Source: an uncultured Candidatus Saccharibacteria bacterium (lineage in GTDB: Bacteria; Patescibacteriota; Minisyncoccia; Minisyncoccales; GWA2-38-27). Taken from it: a DNA stretch of 64,000 nt. Position 1 is the first letter of the stretch. Each line of letters starts with the position of its first letter. The position numbers and the translations under genes are program-made. The stretch spans positions 4,092 to 68,091 of the forward strand of contig CAYUSS010000001.1 in assembly GCA_964447515.1 (NCBI GenBank), read 5' to 3'. A model generated the notes under the pieces. It ran no database searches, had not been told where the DNA came from, and was given only the letters and a program-made list of their open reading frames with translations. Below, piece after piece: positions 9,640 to 53,374 of this stretch.

Positions 9640-9641
9640 TT

Positions 9642-19292: not shown

Positions 19293-20180
19293 GTGTTATT
19301 ATTTAACTATATGGAAAAAGACATACAAAAAATAACAATAGAAGACAAGAATTATCCGGAACTATTGAAAAAAATTAAAAAAGCACCGAAAACTCTTTAT
19401 TTCAAAGGAGAAATCAAATTTAATCAACCCTGCTTTGCTGTTGTGGGAACCAGAAGATATTCTTCTTACGGCAAGCAAGTTGCCTTGGAAATGGCTGGAG
19501 ATTTGGCAGAAGCTGGATTAATAATTGTTAGCGGCTTGGCTCCGGGAATTGATACTTTTGTTCATACAGCCGTAGTTGAGCGGGGGAAAAGAACAATTGC
19601 CGTACTTGGCACAGGTCTTGATGAAAAAAGCATTTATCCCAGAGAAAATATCAAATTAGCTAGAAAAATTGTTGAATTAGGAGGTTGTTTAATTTCAGAA
19701 TATCCTCCGGGAACTCCGGGCAGTCGTTTTACTTTTCCCGAGAGAAACCGAATAATTTCCGGCCTTTCTTTAGGCGCTCTAATAGTTGAGGCAAAAGAAA
19801 AAAGCGGGGCCTTAATTACGGCAAATTATACTCTCTCCCAAGAAAGAAAGCTCTTGGCTATACCGGGTTCAATTTATGCTTTAAACTCCCGCGGCCCTCA
19901 CATTTTAATAAAAAGAGGGGCAAAATTAGTTGAATCAGCCAATGATATTTTGAAAGAGTTGAACCTCCCTCAAGAATCAACGAGGCCCGTCCTCGTTGAA
20001 GGAGATACCGGAAAAGAAAATCTTATCCTGGATTCTCTAAAACAAGAATCTCTATATATTGACAAAATCATTGAAAAAACTAAACTTTCAGCTGCCACCG
20101 TAGCCAGCATTCTTACTGTTTTAGAAATGAAAGGAAAGGTAAAAAACTTAGGAAGAAACATTTATGCGCTTAGGCGCTAA
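19293..20180 (+). CDS. dprA: DNA processing protein DprA
   Basis: Rossmann-like SGLAPGIDTFVH...GTGLD. An in-frame hairpin repeat at 19979-19997 encodes ESTRPVLVEG. Confidence 0.8.
   Translation: MLLFNYMEKDIQKITIEDKNYPELLKKIKKAPKTLYFKGEIKFNQPCFAVVGTRRYSSYGKQVALEMAGDLAEAGLIIVSGLAPGIDTFVHTAVVERGKRTIAVLGTGLDEKSIYPRENIKLARKIVELGGCLISEYPPGTPGSRFTFPERNRIISGLSLGALIVEAKEKSGALITANYTLSQERKLLAIPGSIYALNSRGPHILIKRGAKLVESANDILKELNLPQESTRPVLVEGDTGKENLILDSLKQESLYIDKIIEKTKLSAATVASILTVLEMKGKVKNLGRNIYALRR
19979..19997. repeat. AACGAGG-CCCGTCC-TCGTT hairpin inside dprA (reverse orientation of the aacgaggacgggcctcgtt unit at 36572)
   Basis: Exact reverse complement of the 36572-36590 unit. Confidence 0.6.
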
Positions 20181-20232
20181 TTTTCAATTATCAATTTTCA
20201 ATCATCAAATTATCAACTAAAAATTAAAAATA

Positions 20233-22391: not shown

Positions 22392-22472
22392 TATAAAAAA
22401 TACCTCATTTGAGGTATTTTTTATTTTAATCAATGTATAAGTCCTCTACTTCTCCATATAGCATCAATCAAT

Positions 22473-22507
22473 GTTCAACGTCGGGTGTTCAATGTCGGGT
22501 ATTGAAC
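22473..22507. repeat. GTCGGGT-loop hairpin repeat overlapping the 3' end of the PAP2 gene
   Basis: gttcaacgtcgggtgttcaatgtcgggtattgaac. On the minus strand it encodes the C-terminal ...FNTRH plus the TGA stop. Confidence 0.7.
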
Positions 22508-23001
22508 ATAGGCCAGATTTTGTGGATTAGCCAGCCGGAAAATATTCCGACAAGAGCTCCGGCTAAAATGTCTAAGGGCCAATGGATGCCCACAAAAATT
22601 CTGGCTAAACAAATTAAAAAACTGGCTAAAAAAAACAAAAGTCCGGCTTTTTTATTGTAAAAATAAACAATGATGGACATTGCAAAAAAGAAAGCAGCAT
22701 GGCCCGAAGGAAAAGCAACCGAATTATGAGTTATAAGCAAATTAACGTGATTATGAATAAATGGTCTTGGTCTTTGCCAAAGCCAGCGAATTAACTCAAC
22801 AACAACAAATCTTGCCAAAACAGCCGAGATAATACTTTGAAAAACCATTCTCCAGTATTTTTTAAACCGTATTATCAGAAACAAAAACAGAGAGAAGATT
22901 AAAACATACTCAAAATACTCAGCAAAAAAAACGGCTAAAACATCTAACCAGAGCCATTTTAAAGCAAGTTGATTTATTTGTTCAAAAAAATATAAATCCA
23001 T
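22489..23001 (-). CDS. PAP2-family phosphatase (undecaprenyl-diphosphatase-like)
   Basis: PAP2 motifs PSGH and HWPLD. The last five codons and the stop lie inside the repeat. Confidence 0.7.
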   Translation of the reverse strand: MDLYFFEQINQLALKWLWLDVLAVFFAEYFEYVLIFSLFLFLIIRFKKYWRMVFQSIISAVLARFVVVELIRWLWQRPRPFIHNHVNLLITHNSVAFPSGHAAFFFAMSIIVYFYNKKAGLLFFLASFLICLARIFVGIHWPLDILAGALVGIFSGWLIHKIWPMFNTRH

Positions 23002-25188: not shown

Positions 25189-25228
25189 ACGAGGACGGGT
25201 CTCGTTAATGAGACCCGTCCTCGTTTTA
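25189..25228. terminator. 15-bp-stem hairpin acgaggacgggtctc/gagacccgtcctcgt plus T-run (GACGGGT-loop hairpin family) between leuS and glyA
   Basis: Perfect 15-bp stem with a 6-nt loop, then TTT. Confidence 0.6.
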
Positions 25229-28537: not shown

Positions 28538-29395
28538 TTAAATTCTAAATAATTTCCTCGCGTTCTCCGTTGTCACTCTTGCCACTTCCTCAAAACTTAC
28601 TTCTTTTAATTCAGCTATTTTCTTTGCTACATATTTTATATATAGGGGTTCATTGCGGCCGGTCTTTGGCAAGGGGGTAAGATAAGGACAATCAGTTTCA
28701 ATTAAAATTCTATCCAGAGGAATTTTTCTAATGTTTTCTTGAAAATCAATCCCTTCAATGTTTTTGAAAATTATCCCATTAAAGCCAATATAAAATCCCA
28801 TTTCTAAATATTCTTCTGCCTGTTTCCATTTACCGGTAAAACAATGAATTACTCCTTTCAATCGTTCTTTGTTCTTTACTCTTTGTTCTTTGAGGATTTT
28901 TAGTAAATCATCATGGGCCATCCGGCAGTGAAAAATTACAGGAAGATTTAGTTCTCGGGCTAACTTCAATTGCACTTCAAATACCTCCTTTTGTTTTTCC
29001 TTGAACAATTCAAGTTTTCTTTTTGTTTTGGGTTTGTAATAATAATCCAAGCCAATCTCCCCTATCGCCACTACTTTTTCTGAACCGGCCAGTTCTTTAT
29101 ATTTCTGGTAATTAAATTCTTCTTCAGCAGTTTGAAATTGCTGAATTTCTTCCGGGTCAACTTTTATTTTCACCAATTGGGTTTCCAAATGAATCGGATG
29201 TAAACCAACTGCAGCCCAAACACCTTGTTCATAATTTTGAGCAATCTCTACTGCCCTTTTACTTGTCTCATATTTCGAACCAACATTAATGAGCCAGACA
29301 TTATTGTCCAGCGCTCGTTTTATCACTTCATTTCGGTCATCTTTATAGGCAGCGAAATTGAGATGAGCGTGAGTGTCAAAAAGCATAATTTTCAA
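28538..29395 (-). CDS. tatD: TatD-family metal-dependent DNase/hydrolase
   Basis: MLFDTHAHLNF... and the later HCF/ETD motifs. Confidence 0.8.
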   Translation of the reverse strand: MKIMLFDTHAHLNFAAYKDDRNEVIKRALDNNVWLINVGSKYETSKRAVEIAQNYEQGVWAAVGLHPIHLETQLVKIKVDPEEIQQFQTAEEEFNYQKYKELAGSEKVVAIGEIGLDYYYKPKTKRKLELFKEKQKEVFEVQLKLARELNLPVIFHCRMAHDDLLKILKEQRVKNKERLKGVIHCFTGKWKQAEEYLEMGFYIGFNGIIFKNIEGIDFQENIRKIPLDRILIETDCPYLTPLPKTGRNEPLYIKYVAKKIAELKEVSFEEVARVTTENARKLFRI

Positions 29396-29556
29396 TTTTT
29401 AATTCTCAATTTTCAATCAATTTTAAATTTTACAATTTTCACACTAATAATAGCTGAAGTTTTAGGTTCAAGCAAATATAAAAATAAAAAAAGACCACCA
29501 AGGAAAAATTTCCGGTGACCATTTTGGTTTTGGGTTGTTATCTATTTGTTTCGATA

Positions 29557-30123: not shown

Positions 30124-31584
30124 TTAAACTCGTGGGAAAAGAATCTGGCTCTTCCGGATTCTTAAAATTTGAGAGATTTTCTCTGAGGTTTCGGGCAAAA
30201 TAGGTCTGAGCAATTGAGCAATGTTTTCTAACAAAAATAATAAATTGCTAATTACTAATTTTTGATTTTTTGACTCTTCCCAGGGCCGTTCCTTTTCAAT
30301 ATATTTATCGCAAAAACTAATTAATTTCCAAATTGAAGCCAAAACGCCATTAAATCTAAAATCGTCCAATGCTTTCTTATATTCCCTCTGTGTGTTATCA
30401 ACTACTTTCTCTATTTCTCTCTCTTTTGAGGGTTTATATTTGACGGCCGATATTTTCTCTGCCATTGTTAAAACCCTCGCCACCAAATTTCCTAAGCCCG
30501 AAGCTAAATCCGAATTATACCTCGCTTCAAATTTTTGAAAAGTAAAGTCACCGTCCTCGGCCGGAGGAATTTCCCGCAAAAGATAATATCTAACCGGGTC
30601 AGTTCCATATTTCTTAACGAGTTTAAATGGGTCAATAACATTCCCTAATGATTTCGACATTTTTTGACCCCCAACAGTAATAAATCCATGAACAAATATG
30701 GTTTTGGGCAGTTCTAGTCCAAGCGATAAAATCATCGCTGGCCAAAACAGACAGTGAAATTTTATTATATCTTTCCCAATACAATGAATATCAGCCGGCC
30801 AATATTTTTTAAATTTTTCATCTTCTTTTTCGTATCCAATTGCTGAAATATAATTAGTTAAAGCATCTGCCCAACAATAAATAGTTTGGGTTTTATCGTC
30901 GGGAACCGGTATCCCCCATCTTAAGTTTTTATTTGACCGAGAAAAACTAATATCTCTTAATTCCTGATTTATAAAACTTAAAATTTCGTTTTTTCTTGTT
31001 TCGGGAATAATCTTTATCTCGTCCTTTTCTATAATTTTTTCTATCTTTTTTGAATATCTTGATAATCTAAAAAAATAATTCTCTTCCTCAACTATTTCGG
31101 GTTCTTTTTGATGAACAGGGCACTTTCCGTCTACTAAATCTTTCTCTAAAATAAACGCCTCGCATCCAACACAATATAACCCCTTATACTTTTTTTTATA
31201 AATATCGCCATTCTCTTTTAATTTTAACCAAACTTTTTTTACTGCCGGCCAATGCCTTTTTTTATCAGTTGTCCTAATAAAATCATCATCGGACAAATTT
31301 AAAATCGTCTTCAATTCTTTATACTTATTTGAAATTTCATCAACAAATTCTTTTGGGTTTTTTTCTGTTTTTTTAGATGCTTTAGCAATTTTTGCGCCGT
31401 GTTCGTCAGTACCGGTTAAAAAAAAGACATCCTCATTCAAAAGCCGGTGATATCGAGCTATCACATCTGCCTGAATTGACTCTAAAGCAAATCCAATATG
31501 GGGAAAAGCATTAGCATAAGCGATACTAGTTGTAATGTAAAATTTTCTCCGCGCCATAGCTTTAAAATCCGACCCCTGTCCCAA
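30124..31584 (-). CDS. metG: methionine--tRNA ligase (short form)
   Basis: KMSKSLGNVI, CxxC zinc knuckles, and an N-terminal HIGH-region analogue. Confidence 0.85.
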   Translation of the reverse strand: MGQGSDFKAMARRKFYITTSIAYANAFPHIGFALESIQADVIARYHRLLNEDVFFLTGTDEHGAKIAKASKKTEKNPKEFVDEISNKYKELKTILNLSDDDFIRTTDKKRHWPAVKKVWLKLKENGDIYKKKYKGLYCVGCEAFILEKDLVDGKCPVHQKEPEIVEEENYFFRLSRYSKKIEKIIEKDEIKIIPETRKNEILSFINQELRDISFSRSNKNLRWGIPVPDDKTQTIYCWADALTNYISAIGYEKEDEKFKKYWPADIHCIGKDIIKFHCLFWPAMILSLGLELPKTIFVHGFITVGGQKMSKSLGNVIDPFKLVKKYGTDPVRYYLLREIPPAEDGDFTFQKFEARYNSDLASGLGNLVARVLTMAEKISAVKYKPSKEREIEKVVDNTQREYKKALDDFRFNGVLASIWKLISFCDKYIEKERPWEESKNQKLVISNLLFLLENIAQLLRPILPETSEKISQILRIRKSQILFPRV

Positions 31585-31596
31585 AAAGCTCGGAGG

Positions 31597-31634
31597 TGTT
31601 CAAGGTCGGGTGTTCAAGGTCGGGTCTTGAACAT
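31597..31634. repeat. GTCGGGT-loop hairpin repeat (tandem unit x2 plus closing arm); same as 9608-9639
   Basis: gtgttcaaggtcgggtgttcaaggtcgggtcttgaaca then TTTTT. Confidence 0.7.
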
Positions 31635-34031: not shown

Positions 34032-34082
34032 AAAAATTGAGGGGGTTAGAAGGTTGGATGGTTAGCTTTTGAATTAAATCTC

Positions 34083-34769
34083 CTAATCTCCTAATCTCCT
34101 AATCTCCTGCCTGAATTCTTTTCTATTTATTAATATCAAAAATCTGATTTTTAGAAGCTGATAGGTCATTTTTAAACGATTTTTAAATCCCTTCAAAAGC
34201 CCCCACTTTTTTTCTTTTATTATTACAGTCAAACCTTTTAACTCTTGATAATGAACCTGCAGTCTATTAATTAAACAATAATAATTTAAAGCCGTCTCAA
34301 TAGCAAATCCTTGGATAAACCTTTCCGGTATATTCTCAAAAACAAAACGTTTCATCGCTCTTTCCCCTCCAATAGCTGAAAGAGAGTCAATTTTAACAAT
34401 AATTTTAGGTAAGCCCCAGTAACGTTCTCTTAATCCCACGCACATTACAGCTTTATTTTCTAAAACAGGCTGGACCAATAAAGAAATATGCTTGATGGTC
34501 AAACCAATTAAATCGGCATCAACAAAAACTATTATTTCAGCTTTAGTGCTTTTTACTCCCTGTTTCATAGCATTACCCTTGCCTCTATTTTCTGACAAGC
34601 TTATCACTTTGGCTCCGAGCTCTGCTGCTATCTCAGCCGTTCTATCCTCTGAACCGTCATCTACTACAATCACTTGAGCAAGGTCTTTTGAATTTAAAAG
34701 CACCTTTAAAACTCTGCCGATATTTTTTTCTTCATTTAAAGCGCAAACAATAGCGGCAACTTTATTCAT
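34083..34769 (-). CDS. family 2 glycosyltransferase (polyprenol-phosphate sugar transferase-like)
   Basis: VVDDGSEDRT...VFVDADL. The C-terminal ...QEIRRLGD is encoded by a tandem ctcctaat x3 repeat at 34075-34100. Confidence 0.7.
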   Translation of the reverse strand: MNKVAAIVCALNEEKNIGRVLKVLLNSKDLAQVIVVDDGSEDRTAEIAAELGAKVISLSENRGKGNAMKQGVKSTKAEIIVFVDADLIGLTIKHISLLVQPVLENKAVMCVGLRERYWGLPKIIVKIDSLSAIGGERAMKRFVFENIPERFIQGFAIETALNYYCLINRLQVHYQELKGLTVIIKEKKWGLLKGFKNRLKMTYQLLKIRFLILINRKEFRQEIRRLGD

Positions 34770-36180
34770 TTAATTTTTCTCTTAAAACCTTAATTAAATC
34801 TTTAATTTTTACTCTTTCCTGTTTCATTGTATCGCGGTATCTGATGGTCAGGTCGTCTTGTTTCAAACTTTCAAAATCGATAGTTAAACACAGACAGGTT
34901 GCCACTTCGTCTTGCCTGCGGTATCTCCTACCAATTGAACCAACTTCGTCATATTGACAAACAAAATGGGATTTTAGTATTTGATAAACCTCTCTAGCTT
35001 TTTTAACCAATTCTGGTTTATTTTTAACTAAAGGCAAAACTGCTACTTTAATTGGGGCTATTTTTTTATCAAGTTTAAGCAAAACTTCATTTTCTTTTGT
35101 TGCTTTTGTTGTCTTAGTTCTTCCGCCTTTTATCTCCTGATAGCCATCAATTAAAAGGGCTAAAAGGGCTCTCTCTATTCCCAATGTCGGCTCAATGACA
35201 TAGGGATAATAATTTTTCTTTTTTCCCTCATCAAAATATTTCAAATCCTTGCCGGAAAACTCATTATGTCTTTTTAAATCGTAATCTCTGCGATTAGCCA
35301 CCCCAGCAAGCTCTGCCCAACCAAAAGGAAACTTATACTCTATATCAACCGTTCTTTTTGAATAGTGAGCCAAACTTTCTTTAGGGTGCTCAAATCTCCG
35401 TAAATTTTTCTTTTTTAATCCCAAATCCAAATAGAACTTTTCCCATTTATTCAGCCAAACCTCAAACCATTTTTCATCCTCTCCCGGCTCAACAAAAAAC
35501 TCAATTTCAGCAAGATCAAATTCCCTGGAACGAAAAGTAAAATCACCGAGAGTAATTTCATTTCGGAAAGACCTGCCAATCTGGGCGATACCAAAGGGAA
35601 TTTTTAATCGCGAGGAATCTAAAACATTTTGAAAATTTGTAAACATTGACTGAGCCGTCTCGGGCCGCAAATAGGTCTGGTGGGCTTTATCTCCAACTGG
35701 TCCCAAAAAGGTCTTGAACATTAGATTGAACATCTTGGGTTCTGTAAAATCTTTGCCCCCACATCCCGGACACTGATTTTTCTCTTTTGCCTCACCCTGA
35801 CCAACAAACCGCGCTGCTGCCAAATGGTCAGCTCTAAATCTGAAATGACATTTTTTACATTCCCTGAGAGGGTCAGTAAAATTCTCTACGTGTCCTGATG
35901 CCTGCCAAACCTTAGGATGCATTAAGACTGTTCCGTCAATTAGAACAATATTATTTTCTCCTAAAACAAAACTCTTTAACCAAAATTCCTTTAAATTATT
36001 TTTCATCAGAGACCCCAAAGGTCCATAATCCCAAAGGCCGGCGACTCCGCCGTAAATTTCTGATGATGGGAAAATAAAACCCCGCCTCTTGGAAAGGGAA
36101 ACGATTTTTTCCATTAAATTAGTTCTGTTTTGTTCTTTACTCATTACATTTAGTATAATATTTTTAAAAGGACTTGACAA
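34762..36180 (-). CDS. glyQS: glycine--tRNA ligase (dimeric class II type)
   Basis: Class II motifs, an insertion with a Zn-binding CxxC cluster, and an anticodon-binding C-terminus. Confidence 0.85.
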   Translation of the reverse strand: MSSPFKNIILNVMSKEQNRTNLMEKIVSLSKRRGFIFPSSEIYGGVAGLWDYGPLGSLMKNNLKEFWLKSFVLGENNIVLIDGTVLMHPKVWQASGHVENFTDPLRECKKCHFRFRADHLAAARFVGQGEAKEKNQCPGCGGKDFTEPKMFNLMFKTFLGPVGDKAHQTYLRPETAQSMFTNFQNVLDSSRLKIPFGIAQIGRSFRNEITLGDFTFRSREFDLAEIEFFVEPGEDEKWFEVWLNKWEKFYLDLGLKKKNLRRFEHPKESLAHYSKRTVDIEYKFPFGWAELAGVANRRDYDLKRHNEFSGKDLKYFDEGKKKNYYPYVIEPTLGIERALLALLIDGYQEIKGGRTKTTKATKENEVLLKLDKKIAPIKVAVLPLVKNKPELVKKAREVYQILKSHFVCQYDEVGSIGRRYRRQDEVATCLCLTIDFESLKQDDLTIRYRDTMKQERVKIKDLIKVLREKLNE

Positions 36181-38899: not shown

Positions 38900-41767
38900 T
38901 TAAATTTTCTTAATCCCCAGCCATAATGTTTCCTTATTAACTTTTGCTTCTTTTTTAATTTCAAATTTTATTTTTAATTCCTCTCCGAGCTTAAAATCTT
39001 TAGCCAGAGTTTCTTTCAGAATAAAATCTCTTTTTCTGTTTAAAATTTTATTCAGATGAGTTGGGCCCTGGGCTTGAACTAAAATTTTATCTTTGGGCTT
39101 CAAGCCAGCTTTCTTTCTCAGAGCTTGAATATGTCGAATAACCTCCCGAGCAACTCCTTCCTCTTTAAGTTCTTTTGTAATTTTAGTATCTAATTCTATT
39201 TCTTCGCCAAAAGTAATTTTCTTAACATTAACTTCATCTTTTATTAAATCCAATAAACCTTTTGCTTTTCTTAATTCTTGATTCCTGATTCTTAATTCTT
39301 TCAATGGCTGCCTCACTCTTATCCCTGCTTCTGCCCTCAGACCCAAGGATTGAGTAACAACTTCCCGAACCTGCTCCATTTTTTCTTCTAAATCTGAATT
39401 AATTAATTTTTTATCTGGCTCTGGGTAATCACACAAGTGAACTGATTTTTCTGCGCCATTTAATTTTTGATACAGCTCTTCAGCAATAAAAGGAGTAAAA
39501 GGAGCTATTAGTTTAGTTAGTTTTAAAAGCACATAATATAAAGTTTGAGAGGCCTCTTCTTTTATCTCTTTTGTCTCTGGTCTTTGAAATCTCTTTCGAG
39601 AACGCCGGATATACCAGTTAGATAAATCATCAACAAAATCCTCAAATAATCTAGTCGCCTCCACCACATAGTATTTATCTAAATTTTCTATAATCTGCTG
39701 GCAAAGGTTCTGGAACTGAGAAACAATCCATTTATCAAGTAAGTTTTTGGGGCTAAAATTCTTTTGGGGCTTGAATTTCTTATCAGTATAAGTGGAAAAG
39801 AAAAGGTAAGAATTCCATAAAGTACCAAGGAATCGCCGAGAAATTTCCTGAACATCTTTGAAATCAAATCTTTTGGGTTCTGCTGCCGGATTTATTGTAT
39901 AAAAGTAAAAGCGAGCAGAGTCAGCGCCAAATTTATCAATAACATCTTTTGGCCAAACAACATTGCCTTTTGATTTTGACATTTTCTGGCCCTTAGCATC
40001 CAAAACAATGCCATGGGAGATAACATTTTTGTAAGCCGGGCCCAAATTAAGCAAAGTAGAAACAGCTAACAAAGTATAAAACCAGCCCCTGGTCTGGTCA
40101 ATGCCCTCGCATATAAAATCAGCTGGGAAAAAATTCTTTTTATCAATTTTTTCTTTATTCTCAAAAGGATAATGCCATTGAGCATAAGGCATTGAACCCG
40201 AGTCAAACCAACAATCAACTACTTCAGGAATTCGTCTCATTAGGCCTCCGCACTTTTCACACTTAAAAGTAGCTTTATCAATGGAAGGACGGTGCAAATC
40301 TTGTAACTTGTAACTTGTAACTTGTAACTTTTTTAATTCGTTTAAACTACCAACACAAATTTGCTTATCGCACTTTTCACACTGCCAAATCGGCAAAGGC
40401 GTGCCCCAATATCTTTCCCGAGATAAATTCCAATCTTTAACCTCCCGCAGCCACTCGCCAAACCGCCCATCTTTAAGATAATCTGGTATCCAATTAATTT
40501 TTTTATTATTTTCAAGCAGTTTTTTTCTCAAACCTGACATCTTAATAAACCAAGAGGTCTTGGCGTAATACAATAATGGGCTGTCGCACCGCCAGCAAAA
40601 AGGATAATCGTGTTCATACAGTTCTTTTTTATAAAGTAAATTTCTTTTTTGAAGACTGGCAGTAATTTCTGGGTCAGCGTCTTTTACAAATTTACCTGCC
40701 CAAGGTTTAACTTCTTTTTTAAAAGTACCATCTTCGTTCACTGTTATCAAAATCGGTAAGTCATTTTGCTTGCCAACTTCCATATCCTCCTCTCCAAAAG
40801 CCGGCGCGATATGAACAATACCAGTGCCTTCTTCAGTAGAAATAAAATCACCGGCAACAACCTTAAAAGCTGGCTTCTCTGTTTTCATAAAATCAAATAG
40901 CGGTTCGTATTCTAATTCTAAAAGCTTTTTACCTTTTATTTCTTCAACAATTTTGCCTTTGACGCCACAAGCCTTAAACCTCTCTTTGGCTAAAATCAAA
41001 TATTCATTATTTACTTTCACCTTTGCATAAATAAATTTTGGGTTGACCGCTAATGCTACGTTTGCAGGCAGTGTCCAAGGCGTGGTTGTCCATACTAAAA
41101 GAAAGGTATTAAATTTTTTATTTTTAATTTGTGTTTTTGATTTTTTATTTTTTATTTTTAACTTTAAGAAAATAGCTGGCTCAGATATTTTCTTATATCC
41201 CTGAGCTACTTCATGAGAAGAGAGAGAAGTGCCACAGCGAGGACAATAAGGAACAACTTTGTAATCTTGGTACAAAAGACCCTTTTCCCAAATCTTTTTT
41301 AAAATCCACCACAAACTCTCAATATAATCATTACTGCAGGTAATGTAAGCGTTTTTTAAATCTAGCCAAAAACCAATTCGTTCTGTAAAATCCTCCCATT
41401 CTTTTTTATAAGTGAAAACACTATTCTGACAGGTTTCAATAAATTTCTTAATCCCGATTTTCTCTATGTCTTTTTTAGATTTAATTCCCAGTTTTTTTTC
41501 CGCCTCCATTTCCGTTGGCAAACCATGCGTATCCCAACCAGCCTTTCTTTCAACAGAAAAGCCCTGCATTGTCTTATAACGGAGAATTACATCTTTGAAG
41601 GCCCGGGACAAAAGATGATGAATTCCGGGCAACCCATTAGCAAAAGGCGGTCCTTCAAAAAAAACAAACCTTTTGCCTTTTTTGGTCTTTTTAAGGCTTT
41701 TCTCAAAAATCTTCTTTTCTTTCCAGAATTTTAATATTTTTTCTTCAATTTGCGGAAAATCCATCAT
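38900..41767 (-). CDS. ileS: isoleucine--tRNA ligase
   Basis: HHLLSRAFKDVILRY (HIGH-type), KMSKSKGN, and C-terminal Zn CxxC pairs. It contains the in-frame (CTTGTAA)4 tract and a K-rich low-complexity insertion near 41100-41170. Confidence 0.9.
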   Translation of the reverse strand: MMDFPQIEEKILKFWKEKKIFEKSLKKTKKGKRFVFFEGPPFANGLPGIHHLLSRAFKDVILRYKTMQGFSVERKAGWDTHGLPTEMEAEKKLGIKSKKDIEKIGIKKFIETCQNSVFTYKKEWEDFTERIGFWLDLKNAYITCSNDYIESLWWILKKIWEKGLLYQDYKVVPYCPRCGTSLSSHEVAQGYKKISEPAIFLKLKIKNKKSKTQIKNKKFNTFLLVWTTTPWTLPANVALAVNPKFIYAKVKVNNEYLILAKERFKACGVKGKIVEEIKGKKLLELEYEPLFDFMKTEKPAFKVVAGDFISTEEGTGIVHIAPAFGEEDMEVGKQNDLPILITVNEDGTFKKEVKPWAGKFVKDADPEITASLQKRNLLYKKELYEHDYPFCWRCDSPLLYYAKTSWFIKMSGLRKKLLENNKKINWIPDYLKDGRFGEWLREVKDWNLSRERYWGTPLPIWQCEKCDKQICVGSLNELKKLQVTSYKLQDLHRPSIDKATFKCEKCGGLMRRIPEVVDCWFDSGSMPYAQWHYPFENKEKIDKKNFFPADFICEGIDQTRGWFYTLLAVSTLLNLGPAYKNVISHGIVLDAKGQKMSKSKGNVVWPKDVIDKFGADSARFYFYTINPAAEPKRFDFKDVQEISRRFLGTLWNSYLFFSTYTDKKFKPQKNFSPKNLLDKWIVSQFQNLCQQIIENLDKYYVVEATRLFEDFVDDLSNWYIRRSRKRFQRPETKEIKEEASQTLYYVLLKLTKLIAPFTPFIAEELYQKLNGAEKSVHLCDYPEPDKKLINSDLEEKMEQVREVVTQSLGLRAEAGIRVRQPLKELRIRNQELRKAKGLLDLIKDEVNVKKITFGEEIELDTKITKELKEEGVAREVIRHIQALRKKAGLKPKDKILVQAQGPTHLNKILNRKRDFILKETLAKDFKLGEELKIKFEIKKEAKVNKETLWLGIKKI
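40301..40330. repeat. 30-bp heptanucleotide tandem repeat (CTTGTAA)4 inside ileS, in-frame, encoding KLQVTSYKLQ
   Basis: cttgtaacttgtaacttgtaacttgtaact, identical to 43711-43740 in argS. Confidence 0.8.
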
Positions 41768-41768
41768 A

Positions 41769-42329
41769 TTATAACTGGCGCAGTTCTCCGGTTTTAATTC
41801 TTTTTTCTTTGGGAAATTTTTTTAAAACTTCTTTTTGAGAATAACCTTTAACTCTGCCTTCAAGTAGTATAAGCGGAAGCTGATGGCTTACTATAAGGAT
41901 GTTTTTATTGGAATATTTTTTATCAATTTCTTTTAGAAAATCAGACATTCTTTTAGTTATGTCAAGATAGATTTCTCCTTTAGGCGGTTTTTTAAAAAAT
42001 CTTTCTTCTTCGTTTTTAAAAAATTCCCTAAATCTGTTTAGTGATTCTCCATTAAAAATTCCAGCATTATATTCCCTTAATCTTTTATCTTCTTTTGGTT
42101 TAATTCCTAATTCTTTTCCAACAATCTCAGCTGTTTGGCGAGTTCTTAAAATATCAGAGGTAAAAATCAAGTCAATTCTCTTGTTTTTTAATTTTGGCAC
42201 CATCCTCTTTATCTCTTTTCTCCCTTTTTCGGTCAAGGGAAAAGAAGATTTTTCCGGCCAGCAGGAAATAATCTTTTTTTGATTGCATAGTGCCTCTCCA
42301 TGCCGCAAAATAAAGTAGTTATTATCCAT
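41769..42329 (-). CDS. histidine phosphatase family protein (phosphoglycerate mutase-like)
   Basis: RHG motif ILRHGEALCN and a downstream conserved His. Confidence 0.65.
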   Translation of the reverse strand: MDNNYFILRHGEALCNQKKIISCWPEKSSFPLTEKGRKEIKRMVPKLKNKRIDLIFTSDILRTRQTAEIVGKELGIKPKEDKRLREYNAGIFNGESLNRFREFFKNEEERFFKKPPKGEIYLDITKRMSDFLKEIDKKYSNKNILIVSHQLPLILLEGRVKGYSQKEVLKKFPKEKRIKTGELRQL

Positions 42330-42331
42330 AT

Positions 42332-44008
42332 TTACATTTTTTCAGGACTAGAAATTCCCATTAAATCTAAAATATTTTTTAGAACAATTTTTGTTGCTTG
42401 AACTAAATTCAGCCGGGCTTGGGTTAAATTTTCATCGTCCCCAATCACTCGACATTCCTCATAAAATTTATGAAAAGCTGTTACCAATTCTAAAGCAAAT
42501 TGGGGCAAGCGCTGAAGTTGATAATCTTTAGCTGTATCCTCAACAACTTCTGGAAATCTAATCAACTGCCTTGTCAAATCCATCTCGCTCGGCTCGTCAA
42601 GTAAATTGTCGATCGACAATTTACTTGATGGCGATTTTTTAATCTTTTTTGCTTCTGCTTTTCGGAGAATGCTGGAGATTCGGGCGTGGGCGTATTGGAT
42701 GTAATAAACCGGGTTTTTCTTTGATTGTTTCTTGGCTAATGCCATATCAAAATTTAAGTGAGTATTAGCTGATTTTTGTAAGAAAAAGAATCGAGTAACA
42801 TCTTTTCCAACTTCATTGAGTAATTCGTCCATTGTCACATAAATGCCTTTTCTTTTGGACATTTTTACTTTTTCCTTTTTTTCCAAAAGAGTGACAAACT
42901 GTAAAAGGATGATATCTAATTTTCCCTTATGACCCAAAGCCGCAACTCCAGTCCGCAACCCCTGAACACCGCCAGCGTGGTCAGCTCCCCAGATGTTTAT
43001 TACTTTGTCAAATTTCTTTTTTTTAAATTTATATTTATGGTAAGTAATATCACCGGCTAAATAAGTTTTTGTTCCGTCTTTTTTAACTAAAACTCTGTCT
43101 CTATTATCTCCGAATTTTTTACTTCTAAAAAATTCAGCCCCTTCTTTTTGATAAATTAATTTTTTCTTTTTTAAAAAATTCAAAACTTTGTCAACCTCTC
43201 CGGATTCATAAAGCGTATTCTCGGAAAACCATTCATCAAATTTAATCCCCATTTTCTCAGTTGTTTTCTTGAGCATCTCATCAACTATTATTTTAGCTGC
43301 CTTTTGGCCTGCCTTATATGGGTCTTTCTCCTTAATTTTTTTGTGGAGATAATCAATATACTTTCCTTTATATTTGGCCTCTTTGTCTTTCAAAACCGAA
43401 TGGCCTAAAGCCAAAATCTGATTTCCATAATCATTAATATAATAAGCTTTCTCTACTTTAAAACCAGCTTTTTTCAAAACATTTCCCAAAACATCGCCAA
43501 AAGGACCACTCCGGGCATTACCGACTGTCAAAGGTCCTGTCGGATTAGCGGAAATAAACTCAACCTGAATTTTTTTATTTTTGCCAATATCTAAATCACC
43601 AAATTTCTCGCCTTGCTTCAAAATTTCTCCAACCTGTTTTTGTAAGTATTCTTTACACAAATAAAAATTTATAAAGCCGGGTTTGGCTATTTTGATTCCT
43701 TCAAATAAACCTTGTAACTTGTAACTTGTAACTTGTAACTTTATAACTTCTGCTATCTCTAATGGCTTCCTTTTCAAAACTCTCGTCAATTGCAAACCAA
43801 TGTTTGAAGAATAATCTCCAAACTCCTTATTCTCCGGCCTTTCAACTTCAATTTTCGGTAACTTTTTCAATTTAAATTCCTCTTTAACTGCCTTTTTAAT
43901 TAATTTTTTAAGCTCATCTCTAATCATTCTTTTAGTATAGTTTATTTTAACTCTCGATTCAACTCTCCCCCGCCGCACTTTGTGCAGCAGGGTTTTTTTA
44001 TTGCTCAA
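42332..44008 (-). CDS. argS: arginine--tRNA ligase
   Basis: Class I catalytic core and DALR anticodon-binding C-terminus. It contains the same in-frame (CTTGTAA)4 tract. Confidence 0.85.
   Translation of the reverse strand: MSNKKTLLHKVRRGRVESRVKINYTKRMIRDELKKLIKKAVKEEFKLKKLPKIEVERPENKEFGDYSSNIGLQLTRVLKRKPLEIAEVIKLQVTSYKLQGLFEGIKIAKPGFINFYLCKEYLQKQVGEILKQGEKFGDLDIGKNKKIQVEFISANPTGPLTVGNARSGPFGDVLGNVLKKAGFKVEKAYYINDYGNQILALGHSVLKDKEAKYKGKYIDYLHKKIKEKDPYKAGQKAAKIIVDEMLKKTTEKMGIKFDEWFSENTLYESGEVDKVLNFLKKKKLIYQKEGAEFFRSKKFGDNRDRVLVKKDGTKTYLAGDITYHKYKFKKKKFDKVINIWGADHAGGVQGLRTGVAALGHKGKLDIILLQFVTLLEKKEKVKMSKRKGIYVTMDELLNEVGKDVTRFFFLQKSANTHLNFDMALAKKQSKKNPVYYIQYAHARISSILRKAEAKKIKKSPSSKLSIDNLLDEPSEMDLTRQLIRFPEVVEDTAKDYQLQRLPQFALELVTAFHKFYEECRVIGDDENLTQARLNLVQATKIVLKNILDLMGISSPEKM
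43711..43740. repeat. 30-bp (CTTGTAA)4 tandem repeat inside argS, in-frame, encoding KLQVTSYKLQ
   Basis: Identical 30-mer to 40301-40330. Confidence 0.8.
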
Positions 44009-44033: not shown

Positions 44034-44486
44034 ATGATGACGGTTTTGGCTTACAATCGAAAGGCAATCTATAATTACGAAATCCTGGAGAAATTTGAAG
44101 CGGGCATGGTTTTGATTGGCCAGGAAGTGAAATCAATAAAGTCAGGAAGAATGAGTTTAAAAGGTTCTTATGTAGTTTTAAAAGGAGAAGAGCCCTTTTT
44201 AATCGGGGCTAATATCCCTGCTTATCAGCCAAAAAATGCGCCCCCGGATTATAACCCGGAAAAATCCAGAAAGCTTCTTTTGAATAAATTAGAAATCAAA
44301 CGTTTAATCGGCAAAACCAAAGAAAAGGGCTTGACTTTGGTGCCCTTAAGGGCGTATACTAAAAGAGGTAAAATAAAGCTTGAATTCGGAATTGCCAAAG
44401 GAAGAAAAAAAACCGATAAAAGAGAAATAATTAAAAAAAGAGAAGCCGAAAGGGAAATGAAAAGGGAACTAAAAACCCGGGGGTGA
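44034..44486 (+). CDS. smpB: SsrA-binding protein SmpB
   Basis: MMTVLAYNRKAIYNYEILEKFEAGMVLIGQEVKSIKSG... Confidence 0.9.
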   Translation: MMTVLAYNRKAIYNYEILEKFEAGMVLIGQEVKSIKSGRMSLKGSYVVLKGEEPFLIGANIPAYQPKNAPPDYNPEKSRKLLLNKLEIKRLIGKTKEKGLTLVPLRAYTKRGKIKLEFGIAKGRKKTDKREIIKKREAEREMKRELKTRG

Positions 44487-44828
44487 AAGTTTCGACAGAA
44501 GATTTTACTAAAATAGGGCAAGCCGAGTATTCTCAAATCTCGTAAAACTTTGAGAAAAAAATAAGTGCTAACTTATTCAAAAAACCTGCGTTAGCATTTG
44601 CCTAACGCCATCAGGATTACCGATTCTCGCTAAGTAATCTCTGGTGTAATAATTAGCGAGATAGATAGTTTTTTCTTCGCCTCAAAATAATTATCAAAAC
44701 TTTTCGAGGTCAGGATATTAAGCTTTTTGTCTGTTTTCTACTTGGTATCCGAGACTAAAACAGACTAAGTTTGTAGAACTGTTTTAGCAAAACTTCTGGA
44801 CAAGGGTCCAATCCCTTCATCTCCACAA
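44479..44828 (+). ncRNA. ssrA: tmRNA (SsrA), about 350 nt; proposed tag ANLFKKPALAFA
   Basis: Starts at gggggtgaaagtttcgacag (tRNA-like 5' end) overlapping the smpB stop. The 3' end has the T-arm agggtccaatccct and the acceptor strand tcatctcc, which pairs with the 5' GGGGGUGA. The internal frame gct aac tta ttc aaa aaa cct gcg tta gca ttt gcc taa codes ANLFKKPALAFA then stop. Confidence 0.75.
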
Positions 44829-45900: not shown

Positions 45901-45965
45901 ATGTAACGCGGAAAGGTAACGTTACATCGTTACAATAAAGTAGACATAATTGACAAACGGCCGTT
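45901..45965. terminator. two consecutive perfect palindromes after rplT (bidirectional terminator candidate)
   Basis: atgtaacgcggaaaggtaacgttacat, then agacataattgacaaacgg/ccgtttgtcaattatgtct with 19-bp arms. Confidence 0.5.
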
Positions 45966-46116
45966 TGTCAATTATGTCTAAAAACATTCTCGAGATGTCC
46001 GGTTGTGTTAAAAAAGCCGCTTTTTCAAGGTGGCTTTTGAATTTTCCCGGTAAAAACTCCGGGGTTTCTAACAGAAGAAATATAAAAAATCGCGTCGTCA
46101 GGGTGGGATAAGACAT

Positions 46117-46152: not shown

Positions 46153-47364
46153 TTAGGCTGATGCCTTTTTTCTGAGCTCAGAAAGAACCCACTTTGCCTC
46201 TTCGGTGATTTGGGCTACCTGCCGACGAATCTTTCTGGGAAGAAACCTCCAAAGATGGGGTAAAAGAAGCTCCTCTTGAACAAGTAATTCTCGGAAAACG
46301 CGGACTGGACTTAGTTCAGAAAAAGGAGAATCCTCCTGCCCCAATTTCTCCTCCCTAAACAAAGTGAGAACCCGCTTGAGGTAGTAAATCCACATCCAGA
46401 TAGCCTGAATGGCCTGCCGCTCAACCACCTTACGAAAATGACTTCTTTCCAGCTCCTGTTGCTCTTCCACGCTCAAAAGGCTAATAAGCGAAAATTGACC
46501 AGAGTTATAGGTGCGCAAAAACTCGGTGACCATGTCCCGAACTTTCTTGACTCGCAAATTATCGGTTATCGCTGTCAATGCCCACCACTCTATCTCTGAC
46601 TCCTTTAGCCCTGCCTTCTGCTGAAGCCGAGCGATTTCGCAAGCTACCCCGTAGGGAATTTGGCCATTTTCGACAAATTCCCGGACGCCAGCTGGCAGAA
46701 GGCAGAATTTTACCGCCTGCCGGATGGTGCTCGGACTCCGGCCTACTTGCTTGGCAAATCGAGCCAAGGGGTAGTTTGGATCCATTTGTCTGATGAGCCG
46801 AAAGAGCTGGTCGTAGAAGGTCGCCTCCTCATGGGCCGGCAGCTTCATGTGGATGTTCTCGGAGGCCTGGATAAAAACCGCCTCCAAGGGCGGGATATTG
46901 ATGCAGAGACGCACCTCCACGCTTTGGTCGCCGAAGTGGCGCTCGTAGCAATAACTATCCTTGCCAAATTGTTCCTGGCATTGTTCACAGCCAACATCTC
47001 GTAGATACAAACAGGCTCTGAATCGACGCTCACCAGCCAGCAGGATGTAAAAAGCTTTCTTGCCTTCATCTATAGCAATAAGATCACTTGTTTTATAGGT
47101 TGTTGCCCAGAGCCGATTGATGAGGCTAAGATAGTGTCGACAGCCTGTCTCACAAAATCGAGCCACAATAAGAGGATTCATAAGGTTCTTGGCAGCTATA
47201 TCTTCTGCCAGAAGCTCAATCTCCTCAAAGGTCTGGCGGGGCTGTAGCAACACATTGATATCAGCAAGAGCTATACGTGCCCCAACATACTGATGAGGCT
47301 CAAGGCCGTTTTTCCTAAGCAACGACGTCAGGGAAGTTGGCGCCGTCTTTGATTTTGTTGTCAT
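46153..47364 (-). CDS. ParB/Srx-like nuclease-domain protein with HTH (403 aa); atypically GC-rich
   Basis: ParB box II-like GERRFRA within ...AFYILLAGERRFRACLYL, a Cys-rich insert (CETGCRHY...CEQCQEQFGKDSYCYERHFG), and the HTH LARFAKQVGRSPSTIRQAVKF. GC is about 50% against about 33% in the flanks. Confidence 0.6.
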   Translation of the reverse strand: MTTKSKTAPTSLTSLLRKNGLEPHQYVGARIALADINVLLQPRQTFEEIELLAEDIAAKNLMNPLIVARFCETGCRHYLSLINRLWATTYKTSDLIAIDEGKKAFYILLAGERRFRACLYLRDVGCEQCQEQFGKDSYCYERHFGDQSVEVRLCINIPPLEAVFIQASENIHMKLPAHEEATFYDQLFRLIRQMDPNYPLARFAKQVGRSPSTIRQAVKFCLLPAGVREFVENGQIPYGVACEIARLQQKAGLKESEIEWWALTAITDNLRVKKVRDMVTEFLRTYNSGQFSLISLLSVEEQQELERSHFRKVVERQAIQAIWMWIYYLKRVLTLFREEKLGQEDSPFSELSPVRVFRELLVQEELLLPHLWRFLPRKIRRQVAQITEEAKWVLSELRKKASA

Positions 47365-48824: not shown

Positions 48825-48846
48825 AAATTCACGATTTCTAACGGGG
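48825..48846. repeat. CCCCGT(T)AGAAAT...ATTTCTAACGGGG hairpin; supplies the polX stop codon
   Basis: ccccgtttagaaattcacgatttctaacgggg. The polX C-terminal ...KPR plus TAG stop is read from it. Confidence 0.55.
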
Positions 48847-50568
48847 TTTAAAATATTTTAATAATTTTTCCAAAGGTCGGGTGTTAATTATGTCTTTTTT
48901 CTCCGCCCAGCCGCGGCGAGCCTGGTATACTCCGAATTCCATATATCTCATCTGGCTTTTGTGATGACTATCAGTATTAATGACCAATCTCACTCCCATT
49001 TCAATGGCTTTTTTTATATTGATGTCGTTTAAATCTAATCTTCCAGGAAAAGAATTTATTTCTAAAATTGTATTGGTTTCTTGGGCGGCTCTTAAAATTT
49101 TTTCTATATCTATTTGGTATTCATCTCTCTTTTTTAAAATTCTTCCGGTTGGATGGGAAATAATTTTAATATAGGGGTTTTTCATTGCTTGAATTATCCT
49201 CTCGGTCATCTTTTCTTTTGACATTTTAAAGTTGGAGTGAATCCCGGCAATGGCATAGTCCAATTTTTTTAATGCCTCATCTTTAATATCAATGGAACCG
49301 TCATTTAAGATATTGGTTTCTGCTCCTTGAAGAATTCTAAACTTTATATTTTGTATCTTGTATTTCCTGTTTAATTTATCTATTTCTTCCCGCTGCTGAG
49401 CTAATTGTTCCTCATTTAATCCCTGTTCAATTCGTAAAAATTTTGTATGGTCAGTAATCCCTAAATATTCATATCTTCGCACCATAGCCATATCTTCCAT
49501 CTCTTTAATTGAATTTTGCCCTCCATCCCATTTTGAATGACAATGTAAATCCCCCCTTATATCTTTTAATTCTACTAATTTTGGCAATTTTCTTTTTAGA
49601 GCGGCTTCAATTTCCCCTTGATTTTCTCTTATTTCCGGAGGAATCCATTGGAGGCCAAGAACTTTATAAACACCTTCTTCGGTTTTGCCGGCAATCATTT
49701 TCTTGCCCCGAAAAACCCCGTATTCATTAAGTTTTAAACCTTTCTCTAGGGCAATTTTTCTGGTAGCAATATTATGCTCTTTTGAACCAATAAAATACTG
49801 CAGAGCAGAACCATAACTTTTTTCAGGAACCACCCTGAGATCCATATCAAAACCATCTCTCATTCGGACCGAGGACTTTGTTGCGCCTCTACCCCAAATT
49901 CTAATAACTCCTGGCAAAGAAACAAAAAAATCCATTATTTTTTTTGGATTTTTTGAAATTACCAAGAAATCAACATCACCGATTGTTTCTTTCCTTCTTC
50001 TAACCGAACCGGCTACTGAAATTTTCTGAACCTCCTTTAAATTTTTAAGTTTTTCTTCAATTTCTTTAACAATGGGTAAAATATTCCCTAAAAGAAATCT
50101 TCCCTTACTTTTCTTTAAGAAAGCGATTCCCTCTAAAATATTTTTCTCTGTTTTTATTCCAAAACCTTCTAAATTTCTAATTTTCCTGGCTTTAGCGACT
50201 TTTTCTAAATCTTTTAGGTCCTTCACTCCAAGTTCTTGAAAAAGAACTTTTGCTCTTTTAGGCCCCATTCCTTCAACCTTTGTTATCTCTTCTAAATTTA
50301 GAGGCAGTTTCTTTTTAAATTTTTCGTAATATTTAATCTTTCCTGTTTTTAGATATTCTTCAATTTTTTGGGCAATGCTTTCCCCAACACCGGGAATTTC
50401 TTCAAGCGCCTTAATCCCTCCTCTTTCATAAATCTCCTTAACATCCCTCTCTAAGGATTCTAAATTAAGAGCGGCTTTTTGGTAAGCATAGGGCTTAAAT
50501 TGAACTTCTTCTATTTCTAAGAAGTAAGCTATCTCGAAAAAAATCTTAGCCAATTCCTGGTTATTCAT
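48838..50568 (-). CDS. polX: DNA polymerase X family protein with C-terminal PHP domain
   Basis: HhH motifs, Pol-beta-like GSVRRRKETIGDVDFLV, and the PHP domain HCHSKWDGG...DHT. Confidence 0.85.
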   Translation of the reverse strand: MNNQELAKIFFEIAYFLEIEEVQFKPYAYQKAALNLESLERDVKEIYERGGIKALEEIPGVGESIAQKIEEYLKTGKIKYYEKFKKKLPLNLEEITKVEGMGPKRAKVLFQELGVKDLKDLEKVAKARKIRNLEGFGIKTEKNILEGIAFLKKSKGRFLLGNILPIVKEIEEKLKNLKEVQKISVAGSVRRRKETIGDVDFLVISKNPKKIMDFFVSLPGVIRIWGRGATKSSVRMRDGFDMDLRVVPEKSYGSALQYFIGSKEHNIATRKIALEKGLKLNEYGVFRGKKMIAGKTEEGVYKVLGLQWIPPEIRENQGEIEAALKRKLPKLVELKDIRGDLHCHSKWDGGQNSIKEMEDMAMVRRYEYLGITDHTKFLRIEQGLNEEQLAQQREEIDKLNRKYKIQNIKFRILQGAETNILNDGSIDIKDEALKKLDYAIAGIHSNFKMSKEKMTERIIQAMKNPYIKIISHPTGRILKKRDEYQIDIEKILRAAQETNTILEINSFPGRLDLNDINIKKAIEMGVRLVINTDSHHKSQMRYMEFGVYQARRGWAEKKDIINTRPLEKLLKYFKPR

Positions 50569-53291: not shown

Positions 53292-53308
53292 AATTCAACA
53301 ATTCTATA

Positions 53309-53347
53309 ATACGAGACCCGACCTCGTAACGAGGTCGGGTCTCGTAT
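53309..53347. terminator. 39-bp perfect palindrome atacgagacccgacctcgt aa cgaggtcgggtctcgtat (GTCGGGT-loop hairpin on both strands), bidirectional terminator candidate
   Basis: 19-bp perfect arms, followed by ttacgttttt. Confidence 0.6.
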
Positions 53348-53374
53348 TTACGTTTTTATAAGAACCTGCCTCGC

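Follow-up and report, generated by a model that had tools for sequence, protein, structure and literature searches.

Heptanucleotide repeat tracts at linkers of the IleRS and ArgRS genes in a Candidate Phyla Radiation bacterium

In a 64,000-nucleotide stretch of DNA from an uncultured Candidatus Saccharibacteria bacterium (contig CAYUSS010000001.1, here called the window), the genes for isoleucyl-tRNA synthetase (ileS) and arginyl-tRNA synthetase (argS) each carry the same tandem heptamer, which reads AAGTTAC on the coding strand and CTTGTAA on the other. We consider it reasonably probable that these tracts are in-frame heptanucleotide simple-sequence repeats (SSRs) at permissive linkers of IleRS and ArgRS, subject to slippage or template switching in a 7-nt register and to a reading-frame filter. 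They need no function of their own and they are not a mobile element. The sites at which they lie are conserved and hold heptamer arrays in other lineages of the Candidate Phyla Radiation (CPR), built of other units and, where DNA was read, in the same register.

Results

Two identical heptamer tracts in ileS and argS

The 30-mer CTTGTAACTTGTAACTTGTAACTTGTAACT is found in two exact copies in the window, at 40300-40329 and 43711-43740, and was matched in none of 100 dinucleotide-preserving shuffles of the window. Tandem Repeats Finder reports both tracts (40300-40330 and 43711-43741, 31 bp each) as period 7, with 4.4 copies and 100% matches. Both are perfect (AAGTTAC)4.4 arrays on the minus strand. 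The first lies in ileS (38900-41767, minus strand; a 955-aa open reading frame (ORF), 954 aa in its database form; PDB 8c8w, E = 9.6e-268) at a position that we call site 1, and the second in argS (42332-44008, minus strand; a 558-aa ORF from a TTG codon; PDB 3fnr, E = 2.1e-76) at a position in the Arg_tRNA_synt_N domain that we call the N-site. The database form of ArgRS (P0121) has 531 aa, 27 codons fewer than the TTG ORF, which would place the argS start near 43927. A reading made earlier from the sequence only had reported an identical tract and a shared peptide, KLQVTSYKLQ, with quoted flanks in both genes, all of which was confirmed by exact matching and translation; its argS coordinates (43711-43740) stand, whereas the ileS copy begins at 40300 and not at 40301, a difference of one base. 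In both genes the coding-strand codons are AAG TTA CAA GTT ACA AGT TAC AAG TTA CAA, and rare codons are among them (AAG 24%, AGT 18%, TAC 28%). In IleRS the peptide comprises residues 480-489, and site 1 lies in the zinc-binding insertion, where it links the two Cys pairs.

For any heptamer array, all three frames of one strand give the same cyclic peptide. Because the peptide is cyclic and independent of the frame, a shared peptide requires merely the same strand and the same phase. The CTTGTAA strand has TAA in every frame and the AAGTTAC strand is stop-free in all frames, so the tract is viable inside genes in one orientation only. The ileS and argS tracts are direct repeats, 3411 bp apart, and their flanks are unrelated, with only A/T-rich noise in common. 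Heptamer decomposition places an additional degenerate unit, AAGTTATA (43742-43749, minus strand), against the argS array on its 5' side as read on the coding strand; this array therefore fades into its flank and has no sharp end there.

Perfect period-7 arrays of at least three units are confined in the window to these two tracts. For periods of 4-12, the remaining perfect arrays comprise a pair of AATT arrays and an 8-bp array (34077-34108), and a search of the window for further copies of (CTTGTAA)2 with up to two mismatches gave none but a weak one at 26407. When the threshold is relaxed, segments in the window number six at lag 7, five at lag 14, three at lag 8 and none at lags 5, 6, 9-13 and 15; the five at lag 14 probably take in the lag-7 arrays and a 14-bp intergenic repeat. 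Fold z-scores at the tracts range from -1.3 to +1.6, so no RNA structure is predicted there, and Rfam gives no match at either tract. A promoter reading (TTGTAA-N18-TAACTT within 30 bp) was rejected: a sigma-70 consensus scan makes no call, because the second hexamer matches at just 3/6 positions. CUUGUAA resembles the anticodon loop of tRNA-Thr(UGU), and CTTGTA an Illumina index; we take these as resemblances and nothing further.

The same sites carry heptamer arrays in relatives

What the sites are became clear from the DNA of orthologues. At the ArgRS N-site, all lineages whose DNA was read have arrays of 4-5 heptamer units that coincide in position and in 7-nt register, and the unit turns over between lineages. 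The window has four units of AAGTTAC; P0124 has four of CAAAAGT in a perfect array of 33 bp, which can be written (AAGTCAA)4.7; P0125 has four of CAAAAAT, also perfect and equal to (AAATCAA)4.7; P0130 and P0136 have five units each, of CTNAAAT and NNAGGTT, respectively; and L259 and L260 have degenerate arrays of approximately AATTCTA and of NNAGATT. At the protein level, a 7-residue-periodic peptide is present at this site in 35 of 120 orthologues, compared with 0-3 at lags of 5, 6, 8, 9 and 10 residues.

Two further linkers behave similarly. At ArgRS site 2, a disordered linker after SILRKA, lag-7 peptide repeats are found in 39/120 orthologues versus 0-9 at other lags. P0136 has (GTATCAA)5 at this site, and in P0157 and P0227 a decayed AAGTTAC-like array, compatible with a GCTACAA unit, encodes ATSYKLQATSYKL; the window itself has a perfect 32-bp palindrome (TCAAGTAAATTGTCGA/TCGACAATTTACTTGA, 42597-42628). 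At IleRS site 3, lag-7 repeats occur in 30/120 orthologues versus 5-14 at other lags. Here the window has a degenerate array (39267-39301, minus strand) of the units AATTAAG AATCAGG AATCAAG AATTAAG, encoding ELRIRNQELR, and the orthologues have AATCAAA x4 (P0004), AATCAGG x3 (P0031) and AAGATTW (P0010). No heptamer array was found in the LeuRS, MetRS and ProRS genes of the same window.

These positions tolerate variation, in line with the sequence-only reading, which had suggested surface loops as targets. In the AlphaFold model of ArgRS (mean predicted local distance difference test score, pLDDT, 85), the tract peptide (residues 63-72 of the 531-aa protein) runs from the end of a helix (55-68) into the loop that precedes a strand (75-81), and residues 431-437, which correspond to site 2, have pLDDT values below 50 and are modelled as disordered. 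In some CPR IleRS proteins of about 1150 aa, a His_Phos_1 domain is inserted in the catalytic domain and aligns to the site-1 linker (P0055, P0060, P0072, P0078, P0081, P0096, P0114 and L264:2601-3590). Because an entire domain is accepted there in some lineages, IleRS site 1 must be very tolerant.

Linker lengths argue against insertion

Considering that the tracts are 31 bp long, their effect on protein length is small. Compared with tract-less orthologues, the net difference is +2 aa for IleRS and +1 aa for ArgRS, rather than +7 or +10. From EL to DLHRP, the ileS linker counts 11 residues in the window, and 9 is its commonest length in close CPR/Patescibacteria orthologues; the ArgRS N-site linker has 23 residues in the window against a mode of 22. 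Alignments to the solved structures 8c8w and 3fnr place both tracts in stretches that the homologues also have; in 8c8w the stretch aligned with the ileS tract is variable and of similar length. In the syntenic relative L260, which has the order smpB-argS-His_Phos-ileS and is 76% identical in ArgRS and ~72% in IleRS, the AAGTTAC tract is missing from both genes and their lengths are almost unchanged. A search for terminal repeats and target duplications at the two tracts found none.

The sequence-only reading had described the tracts as inserted and suggested a short mobile cassette. Insertion and a mobile cassette were rejected on the basis of the orthologue alignments and the orthologue DNA: the net gain is two residues and one residue, the flanks of the two tracts are unrelated, and the orthologues already hold heptamer arrays at these sites, in the same register where their DNA was read. 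The comparison with orthologues that it had proposed, in which relatives carrying the same residues without a repeat would speak against insertion, came out half in that sense. Four other IleRS lineages do have KLQVT[SN][YH]KL[QR] at this position, and they have it by way of decayed copies of the same repeat. With decayed AAGTTAC copies in four other IleRS lineages, the ileS tract can be neither private to the window lineage nor a recent insertion there.

In a broader form of this idea, about 31 bp of (AAGTTAC)n would be inserted, or written over existing sequence, at preferred sites, either by a mobile cassette or by a site-specific 'writer' such as a reverse transcriptase or a template-directed polymerase. 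Such a process would account for the identity of the two tracts in unit, phase and length, and for the recurrence of the tract at the ileS site in unrelated lineages, where its distribution is patchy and not clade-like. Arrays of this length are also found in other CPR genes (31 bp in L016 and L119, 32 bp in L048), some genomes have many copies of the AAGTTAC unit (e.g. at least nine arrays in one Acidobacteriota metagenome-assembled genome (MAG), with a conserved TTTG flank), and some Acidobacteriota arrays form inverted pairs 80-100 bp apart. We nevertheless regard a writer as improbable. The tracts have neither terminal inverted repeats nor target-site duplications nor sharp boundaries, with the argS array running into a degenerate unit; the length change is not that of a clean insertion; many other units occupy the same sites; and a Pfam scan of the 10 largest window ORFs found no reverse transcriptase, transposase or recombinase among them. 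In viral contigs, moreover, the unit is found at 12 loci, about twice the number for two scrambled heptamers (6 and 6 loci), compared with 107 for TAACTGA. A diversity-generating retroelement was also considered and does not fit, as the window has just two identical copies and the differences between orthologues are not adenine-specific.

How the arrays change

One view of change comes from P0124 and P0125, whose ArgRS proteins are 78% identical (77% at the nucleotide level) and whose N-site arrays are both perfect, with the same A/G difference in every unit. The arrays have thus stayed perfect despite the divergence of the surrounding gene, and the unit change has reached all copies, which is the pattern of concerted evolution. 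Changes in length follow the reading frame: the ArgRS N-site linker has 22 aa in 77/120 orthologues and 15 aa in 8/120, and the gap between these classes is 7 residues, or three units. These classes agree with the earlier calculation that a change by one unit shifts the frame and a change by three units adds 7 residues.

The ileS tract was followed across L121/L123 (P0004), L122 (P0031), L124 and L125, in which its length and phase are unchanged and it carries 1-5 substitutions. Its nucleotide identity across lineages is 26-29/30, compared with 63-73% gene-wide. In two orthologues found without DNA-pattern bias, the same codon is used at 14/17 conserved residues of the tract versus about 55% gene-wide, and L124, although only ~59% identical to the window IleRS, is identical at 30/31 positions of the tract. 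The nearest relative of P0004 is the tract-less P0010 (82%), and that of L125 is P0093 (75%), which has an AATCAAA-type array at the ileS tract site. An ancient tract under neutral decay was rejected, since the tract outconserves the gene and its bearers form no clade, as judged from nearest-neighbour identity and from a rough neighbour-joining tree without support values. Recent transfer of a larger tract-carrying patch was likewise rejected: the flanks of the tract-bearing genes have diverged like the remainder. In P0010, identity to P0004 drops in a limited patch, and recombination does occur in this subdomain.

The conservation of the ileS tract above that of its gene, despite rare codons and a hypervariable position in the protein, is what would be expected if the arrays were functional cis-elements, that is, single-stranded 7-nt-periodic sites in mRNA or DNA that co-regulate synthetase genes, with the periodicity under selection. 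A putative binder would take one heptamer per domain, e.g. a cold-shock or S1-type protein with an oligonucleotide-binding (OB) fold. Consistent with such a role, the coding arrays found in the window and in related loci all fall within synthetase genes, the unit is carried in other CPR genomes by AlaRS and MetRS genes, an inverted heptamer-array pair lies just upstream of a tRNA-synt_1b gene beyond the window, and the tracts are predicted to be unstructured, hence accessible. In other phyla the unit is found 10-45 nt upstream of start codons, as is the case for TAACTGA (PMC4679880). Several results make this explanation unlikely. The units at one site differ completely by lineage, which excludes a sequence-specific binder and leaves only periodicity to matter. 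Most orthologues have decayed arrays or none, with no apparent harm, and the syntenic L260 has a decayed N-site array in argS and no array at ileS site 1. The absence of arrays from LeuRS, MetRS and ProRS in the window, and of any Rfam match, also counts against it.

Another possibility is that the tracts are contingency loci, in which a reversible slip by plus or minus one unit would frameshift a synthetase and give rise to a dormant subpopulation as a form of bet-hedging. The unit is indeed not a multiple of three and lies inside the coding sequence, as is classic for phase-variable genes, and a single-unit slip would knock out IleRS or ArgRS. No copy-number variants are present among the database copies (P0001, P0002, P0003 and P0121) or the five ileS lineages, 4.4 units are few for an efficient switch, the arrays of most lineages are degenerate and would not slip, and IleRS and ArgRS are essential housekeeping enzymes rather than surface or host-interaction proteins. 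Taken together, these points render contingency very improbable.

Reproducibility of the tracts

The tract is present in P0001-P0003, three different IleRS sequences from the databases (five contig records in all, from NCBI and JGI), and in the database ArgRS P0121 (four contig records), and decayed, still in-frame copies are found at the orthologous ileS position in contigs from several other metagenomes. A sequencing or assembly artefact might be suspected, given that most carriers are metagenome-assembled genomes, that several contigs stop inside such arrays (L005, L021, L024, L039, L086, L108) and that CTTGTA resembles an Illumina index. It would, in turn, have had to keep the frame in two essential genes, to arise identically in three distinct IleRS sequences and an ArgRS sequence, and to leave decayed in-frame copies at the orthologous position in several unrelated samples. 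An artefact is therefore hardly credible, and, judged by these independent records, the ileS and argS tracts are genuine.

The wider class of heptamer repeats

Across the genome collection, the 21-mer (CTTGTAA)3 is found at 120 or more loci in several phyla. Among the matches listed, the carriers include Acidobacteriota, Bacteroidota, Chloroflexota, Gammaproteobacteria and 15 CPR genomes; copies per genome reach nine arrays in Acidobacteriota and four loci each in a Paludibacter MAG and a Tannerellaceae MAG; arrays are typically 25-33 bp long; and copies are mostly intergenic, many of them 10-45 nt upstream of a ribosome-binding site or start codon. Copies in long ORFs confirmed by Pfam are, among these same matches, always in the AAGTTAC orientation. 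Their hosts are AlaRS (L079), MetRS (L039, with two tracts 435 bp apart), UvrC, two GT1 glycosyltransferases, two Wzy_C proteins, a Mur ligase, RsmH, CobT, an epimerase and a type IX secretion system (T9SS) sorting tail.

In 844 kb around 120 other loci with this unit, we counted 195 arrays of period 7, compared with one of period 6, four of period 8 and none of periods 9-11. The same 844 kb contains 62 additional perfect heptamer arrays with other units. Period 7 is thus special and the CTTGTAA unit just mildly so; the notion that this heptamer stands out globally was dropped in view of the viral-contig controls described above. Across the window proteome, 7-residue periodicity is about twice that of shuffled sequences, like lags 8 and 11, and most of it is not heptamer DNA. 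A protein-database search with (KLQVTSY)6 returned only tiny ORFs from long, probably non-coding arrays and is uninformative about host proteins. No additional tract copy is present in L266, which extends about 8 kb past the right end of the window, and L265 adds little sequence at the left end.

Genomic setting and other repeats

Between argS and ileS lies a gene for a His_Phos_1 (phosphoglycerate-mutase-like) protein (41769-42329, minus strand), assigned from the ORF map and from synteny and Pfam matches in relatives. As argS, His_Phos_1 and ileS abut on the same strand, they probably form one operon. The window has five synthetase genes within 19 kb on one strand, namely LeuRS (25226-27706), MetRS (30124-31584), a class II ProRS-like gene (34762-36180), IleRS and ArgRS, and heptamer arrays are found in IleRS and ArgRS only. 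Divergent from argS are smpB (44034-44486) and then the gene for transfer-messenger RNA (tmRNA; 44479-44828, Rfam 141 bits), an arrangement that is kept in relatives.

Two degenerate (AATTTTC)n arrays are located elsewhere in the window, both read on the plus strand: one at 20178-20209, intergenic and 24 nt upstream of the topA start codon, and one at 29386-29418, overlapping the start of the minus-strand ORF 28538-29395. A pair of inverted degenerate arrays, (AATTYTC)n/(GAAAATT)n, is present at L266:7765-7886, in another assembly of the same organism and about 0.1-0.2 kb past the right end of the window; it lies between a gene for RNase J and one of tRNA-synt_1b (TrpRS/TyrRS) type, immediately upstream of the latter. 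In several Acidobacteriota MAGs, inverted pairs 60-100 bp apart take the form AGTT(ACAAGTT)3 caaag ... ctttg (AACTTGT)3 AACT (L030:3300-3430, L058:7645-7760, L062:2525-2655, L096:3805-3920). The flanking TTTG of these pairs is conserved, each genome has many copies, and they look like a small dispersed hairpin element. In a Bacteroidota MAG (L059:2535-2830), an inverted tract pair flanks a small gene that is seemingly cut short by the downstream tract; this gene may resemble the four-helix-bundle '23S rRNA intervening sequence protein' family.

The window also contains a dispersed element of about 38 bp, TGTTCAAGGTCGGG TGTTCAAGGTCGGG TCTTGAACAT, at 9603-9640, 22472-22509 and 31597-31634. It consists of a 14-bp tandem duplication followed by an inverted copy, CTTGAACA, with which either TGTTCAAG copy could pair, and all three copies lie just 3' of, or overlap, the stop codon of a minus-strand gene. 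The element may be terminator-like or similar to repetitive extragenic palindromic (REP) sequences. A perfect, G+C-rich 43-bp palindrome with 21-nt arms and a 1-nt centre lies at 10567-10609 in a ComEC-like ORF (9642-11171) of this A+T-rich genome. Further perfect palindromes are intergenic, at 45941-45980 and 53308-53348, and the first of these adjoins a 403-aa ORF (46153-47364) that has no Pfam match.

Discussion

From these patterns we infer a slippage mechanism and, with it, the origin of the identity between the ileS and argS tracts. Replication slippage or template switching in a 7-nt register would make the arrays and homogenise them. An essential gene would tolerate only changes of 21 bp (three units) or conversion changes that are neutral in length; if only these survive, the copy number would seem frozen at about 4.4 units, with the sequence staying periodic. 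Arrays that are no longer homogenised would decay to ordinary, unique linker sequence. The identity of the two tracts could be due to either of two routes. One is conversion between similar same-strand arrays 3.4 kb apart, in which argS would be the likelier recipient because the ileS unit is common to other lineages. The other is convergence within one unit family, to which the ArgRS array of P0124 could be assigned, its AAGTCAA unit having the same register and 5/7 identical bases. Gene conversion, raised earlier as part of an insertion process, thus stays a live explanation for the identity of the tracts alongside convergence, and does not stand as a means of insertion. Family-X gap-filling polymerases are prone to template slippage. 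A gene for such an enzyme, with Pol beta-like thumb, HhH and PHP domains, lies at 48838-50568 in the window and is a candidate source of 7-nt-register copying.

Several observations weigh against slippage with a frame filter as a complete account. No slippage was seen directly, and all five ileS lineages and the database copies have 4.4 units, so that homogenisation without length change rests on inference. The tract-bearing IleRS proteins are not mutual nearest relatives, which slippage alone would not predict; simple vertical decay misfits this distribution, and homogenisation, repeated gain, small-patch recombination or selection is required. In close relatives the unit is swapped outright, as at IleRS site 3 in P0004 (AATCAAA) and P0010 (AAGATTW), and single-base concerted change is therefore insufficient. 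Every coding array found in the window and related loci sits in a synthetase gene, and a purely neutral model of 'any tolerant linker' thus falls short. Finally, the sharing of unit, phase and length by ileS and argS is atypical, as the sites of other genomes differ in unit. The enrichment in synthetase genes, the recurrence at the ileS site in non-sister lineages and the outright replacement of units are unexplained by slippage at permissive linkers.

A more far-reaching possibility, which we put forward tentatively and hold to be doubtful, is that in CPR bacteria copying in a 7-nt register rewrites a small number of synthetase linkers and is the main source of their lineage-specific linkers and insertions, with the periodicity kept by selection or drive. 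The source would be a property of a replication or repair polymerase or a dedicated activity, and the arrays might be kept, e.g., as 7-nt-periodic binding sites that couple the expression of synthetase genes. Such rewriting would explain both the concentration in synthetase genes and the conservation of the ileS tract above that of its gene.

Among long SSRs, the heptanucleotide class has been described as the most abundant (Mrazek et al. 2007, summarised in PMC4679880 and in PMC4692102), and polymerase slippage is the explanation published for it. The dispersed heptamers TAACTGA, GGGAATC and the short tandemly repeated repetitive (STRR) sequences are mostly intergenic and, in ORFs, take the stop-free orientation (PMC4679880, PMC4692102). 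The closest likeness is to the TAACTGA direct repeats of marine Beggiatoaceae, cyanobacteria and Bacteroidetes (MacGregor 2015, PMC4679880). These are likewise tandem 7-nt units, mostly in 2-6 copies, with one unit scattered over many loci per genome and over distant phyla. Their 'forward' direction has stops in all frames and the copies in ORFs are 'reverse', encoding LSVISYQ compared with KLQVTSY here. TAACT is common to TAACTGA and TAACTTG, and the position near start codons is also seen for the CTTGTAA unit in other phyla. Binding by S1, Csp or CsrA proteins has been proposed for TAACTGA (PMC4679880). The tracts described here differ in their unit, in their CPR/Patescibacteria hosts and in lying mid-domain in essential synthetases rather than at protein ends; they also occupy sites that are conserved among orthologues with turnover of the unit, which PMC4679880 does not describe.

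Long SSRs, STRR and GGGAATC repeats of cyanobacteria and Xanthomonas likewise show period 7 far above neighbouring periods and a preference for about four units, as reported for GGGAATC (Rehm et al. 2015, PMC4692102). Published long SSRs are over-represented in intergenic and under-represented in coding DNA. The CTTGTAA unit in other phyla is mostly intergenic in the same manner, and the window arrays at 20178 and 29386 are also intergenic or near a start codon. The ileS and argS tracts, in contrast, lie in frame within essential genes, with length held to three-unit steps and with evidence of concerted evolution. The phase-variable contingency genes of host-adapted pathogens share a unit that is not a multiple of three, placed in the coding sequence, where a slip by one unit shifts the frame; they differ from the present case, in which there is no copy-number variation, the hosts are essential housekeeping genes, arrays have only 4.4 units and those of orthologues are degenerate.

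Template-switch mutagenesis similarly leaves the products of misaligned copying in variable linkers, here heptamer arrays and the 32-bp palindrome at ArgRS site 2. Generic template switching is not known to keep a strict 7-nt period or to return to the same sites in many lineages. A likeness to insertions derived from tandem repeats is seen where longer lineage-specific insertions open with decayed arrays, as in P0175, in which ITNYKLQT opens a 46-residue linker, 24 residues beyond the 22-residue mode. Our search for papers that tie heptanucleotide repeats to CPR bacteria or to synthetase genes found none and, with most subscription journals outside its reach, is weak evidence of novelty.

In practical terms, identical 30-mers in separate CPR genes need not mean mobile DNA or contamination, and heptamer tracts can break assemblies, because several contigs end within them. 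In an essential gene, a microsatellite whose unit cannot be divided by three would ordinarily be a liability; here it persists at fixed positions of synthetases in many CPR lineages. If the pattern is general, it would provide a natural system in which a strict reading-frame filter acts on 7-bp repeats, whose excess in prokaryotes has long been noted without being explained, and it would give a simple origin for new linker peptides and insertions in CPR proteins, which are reduced and evolve fast.

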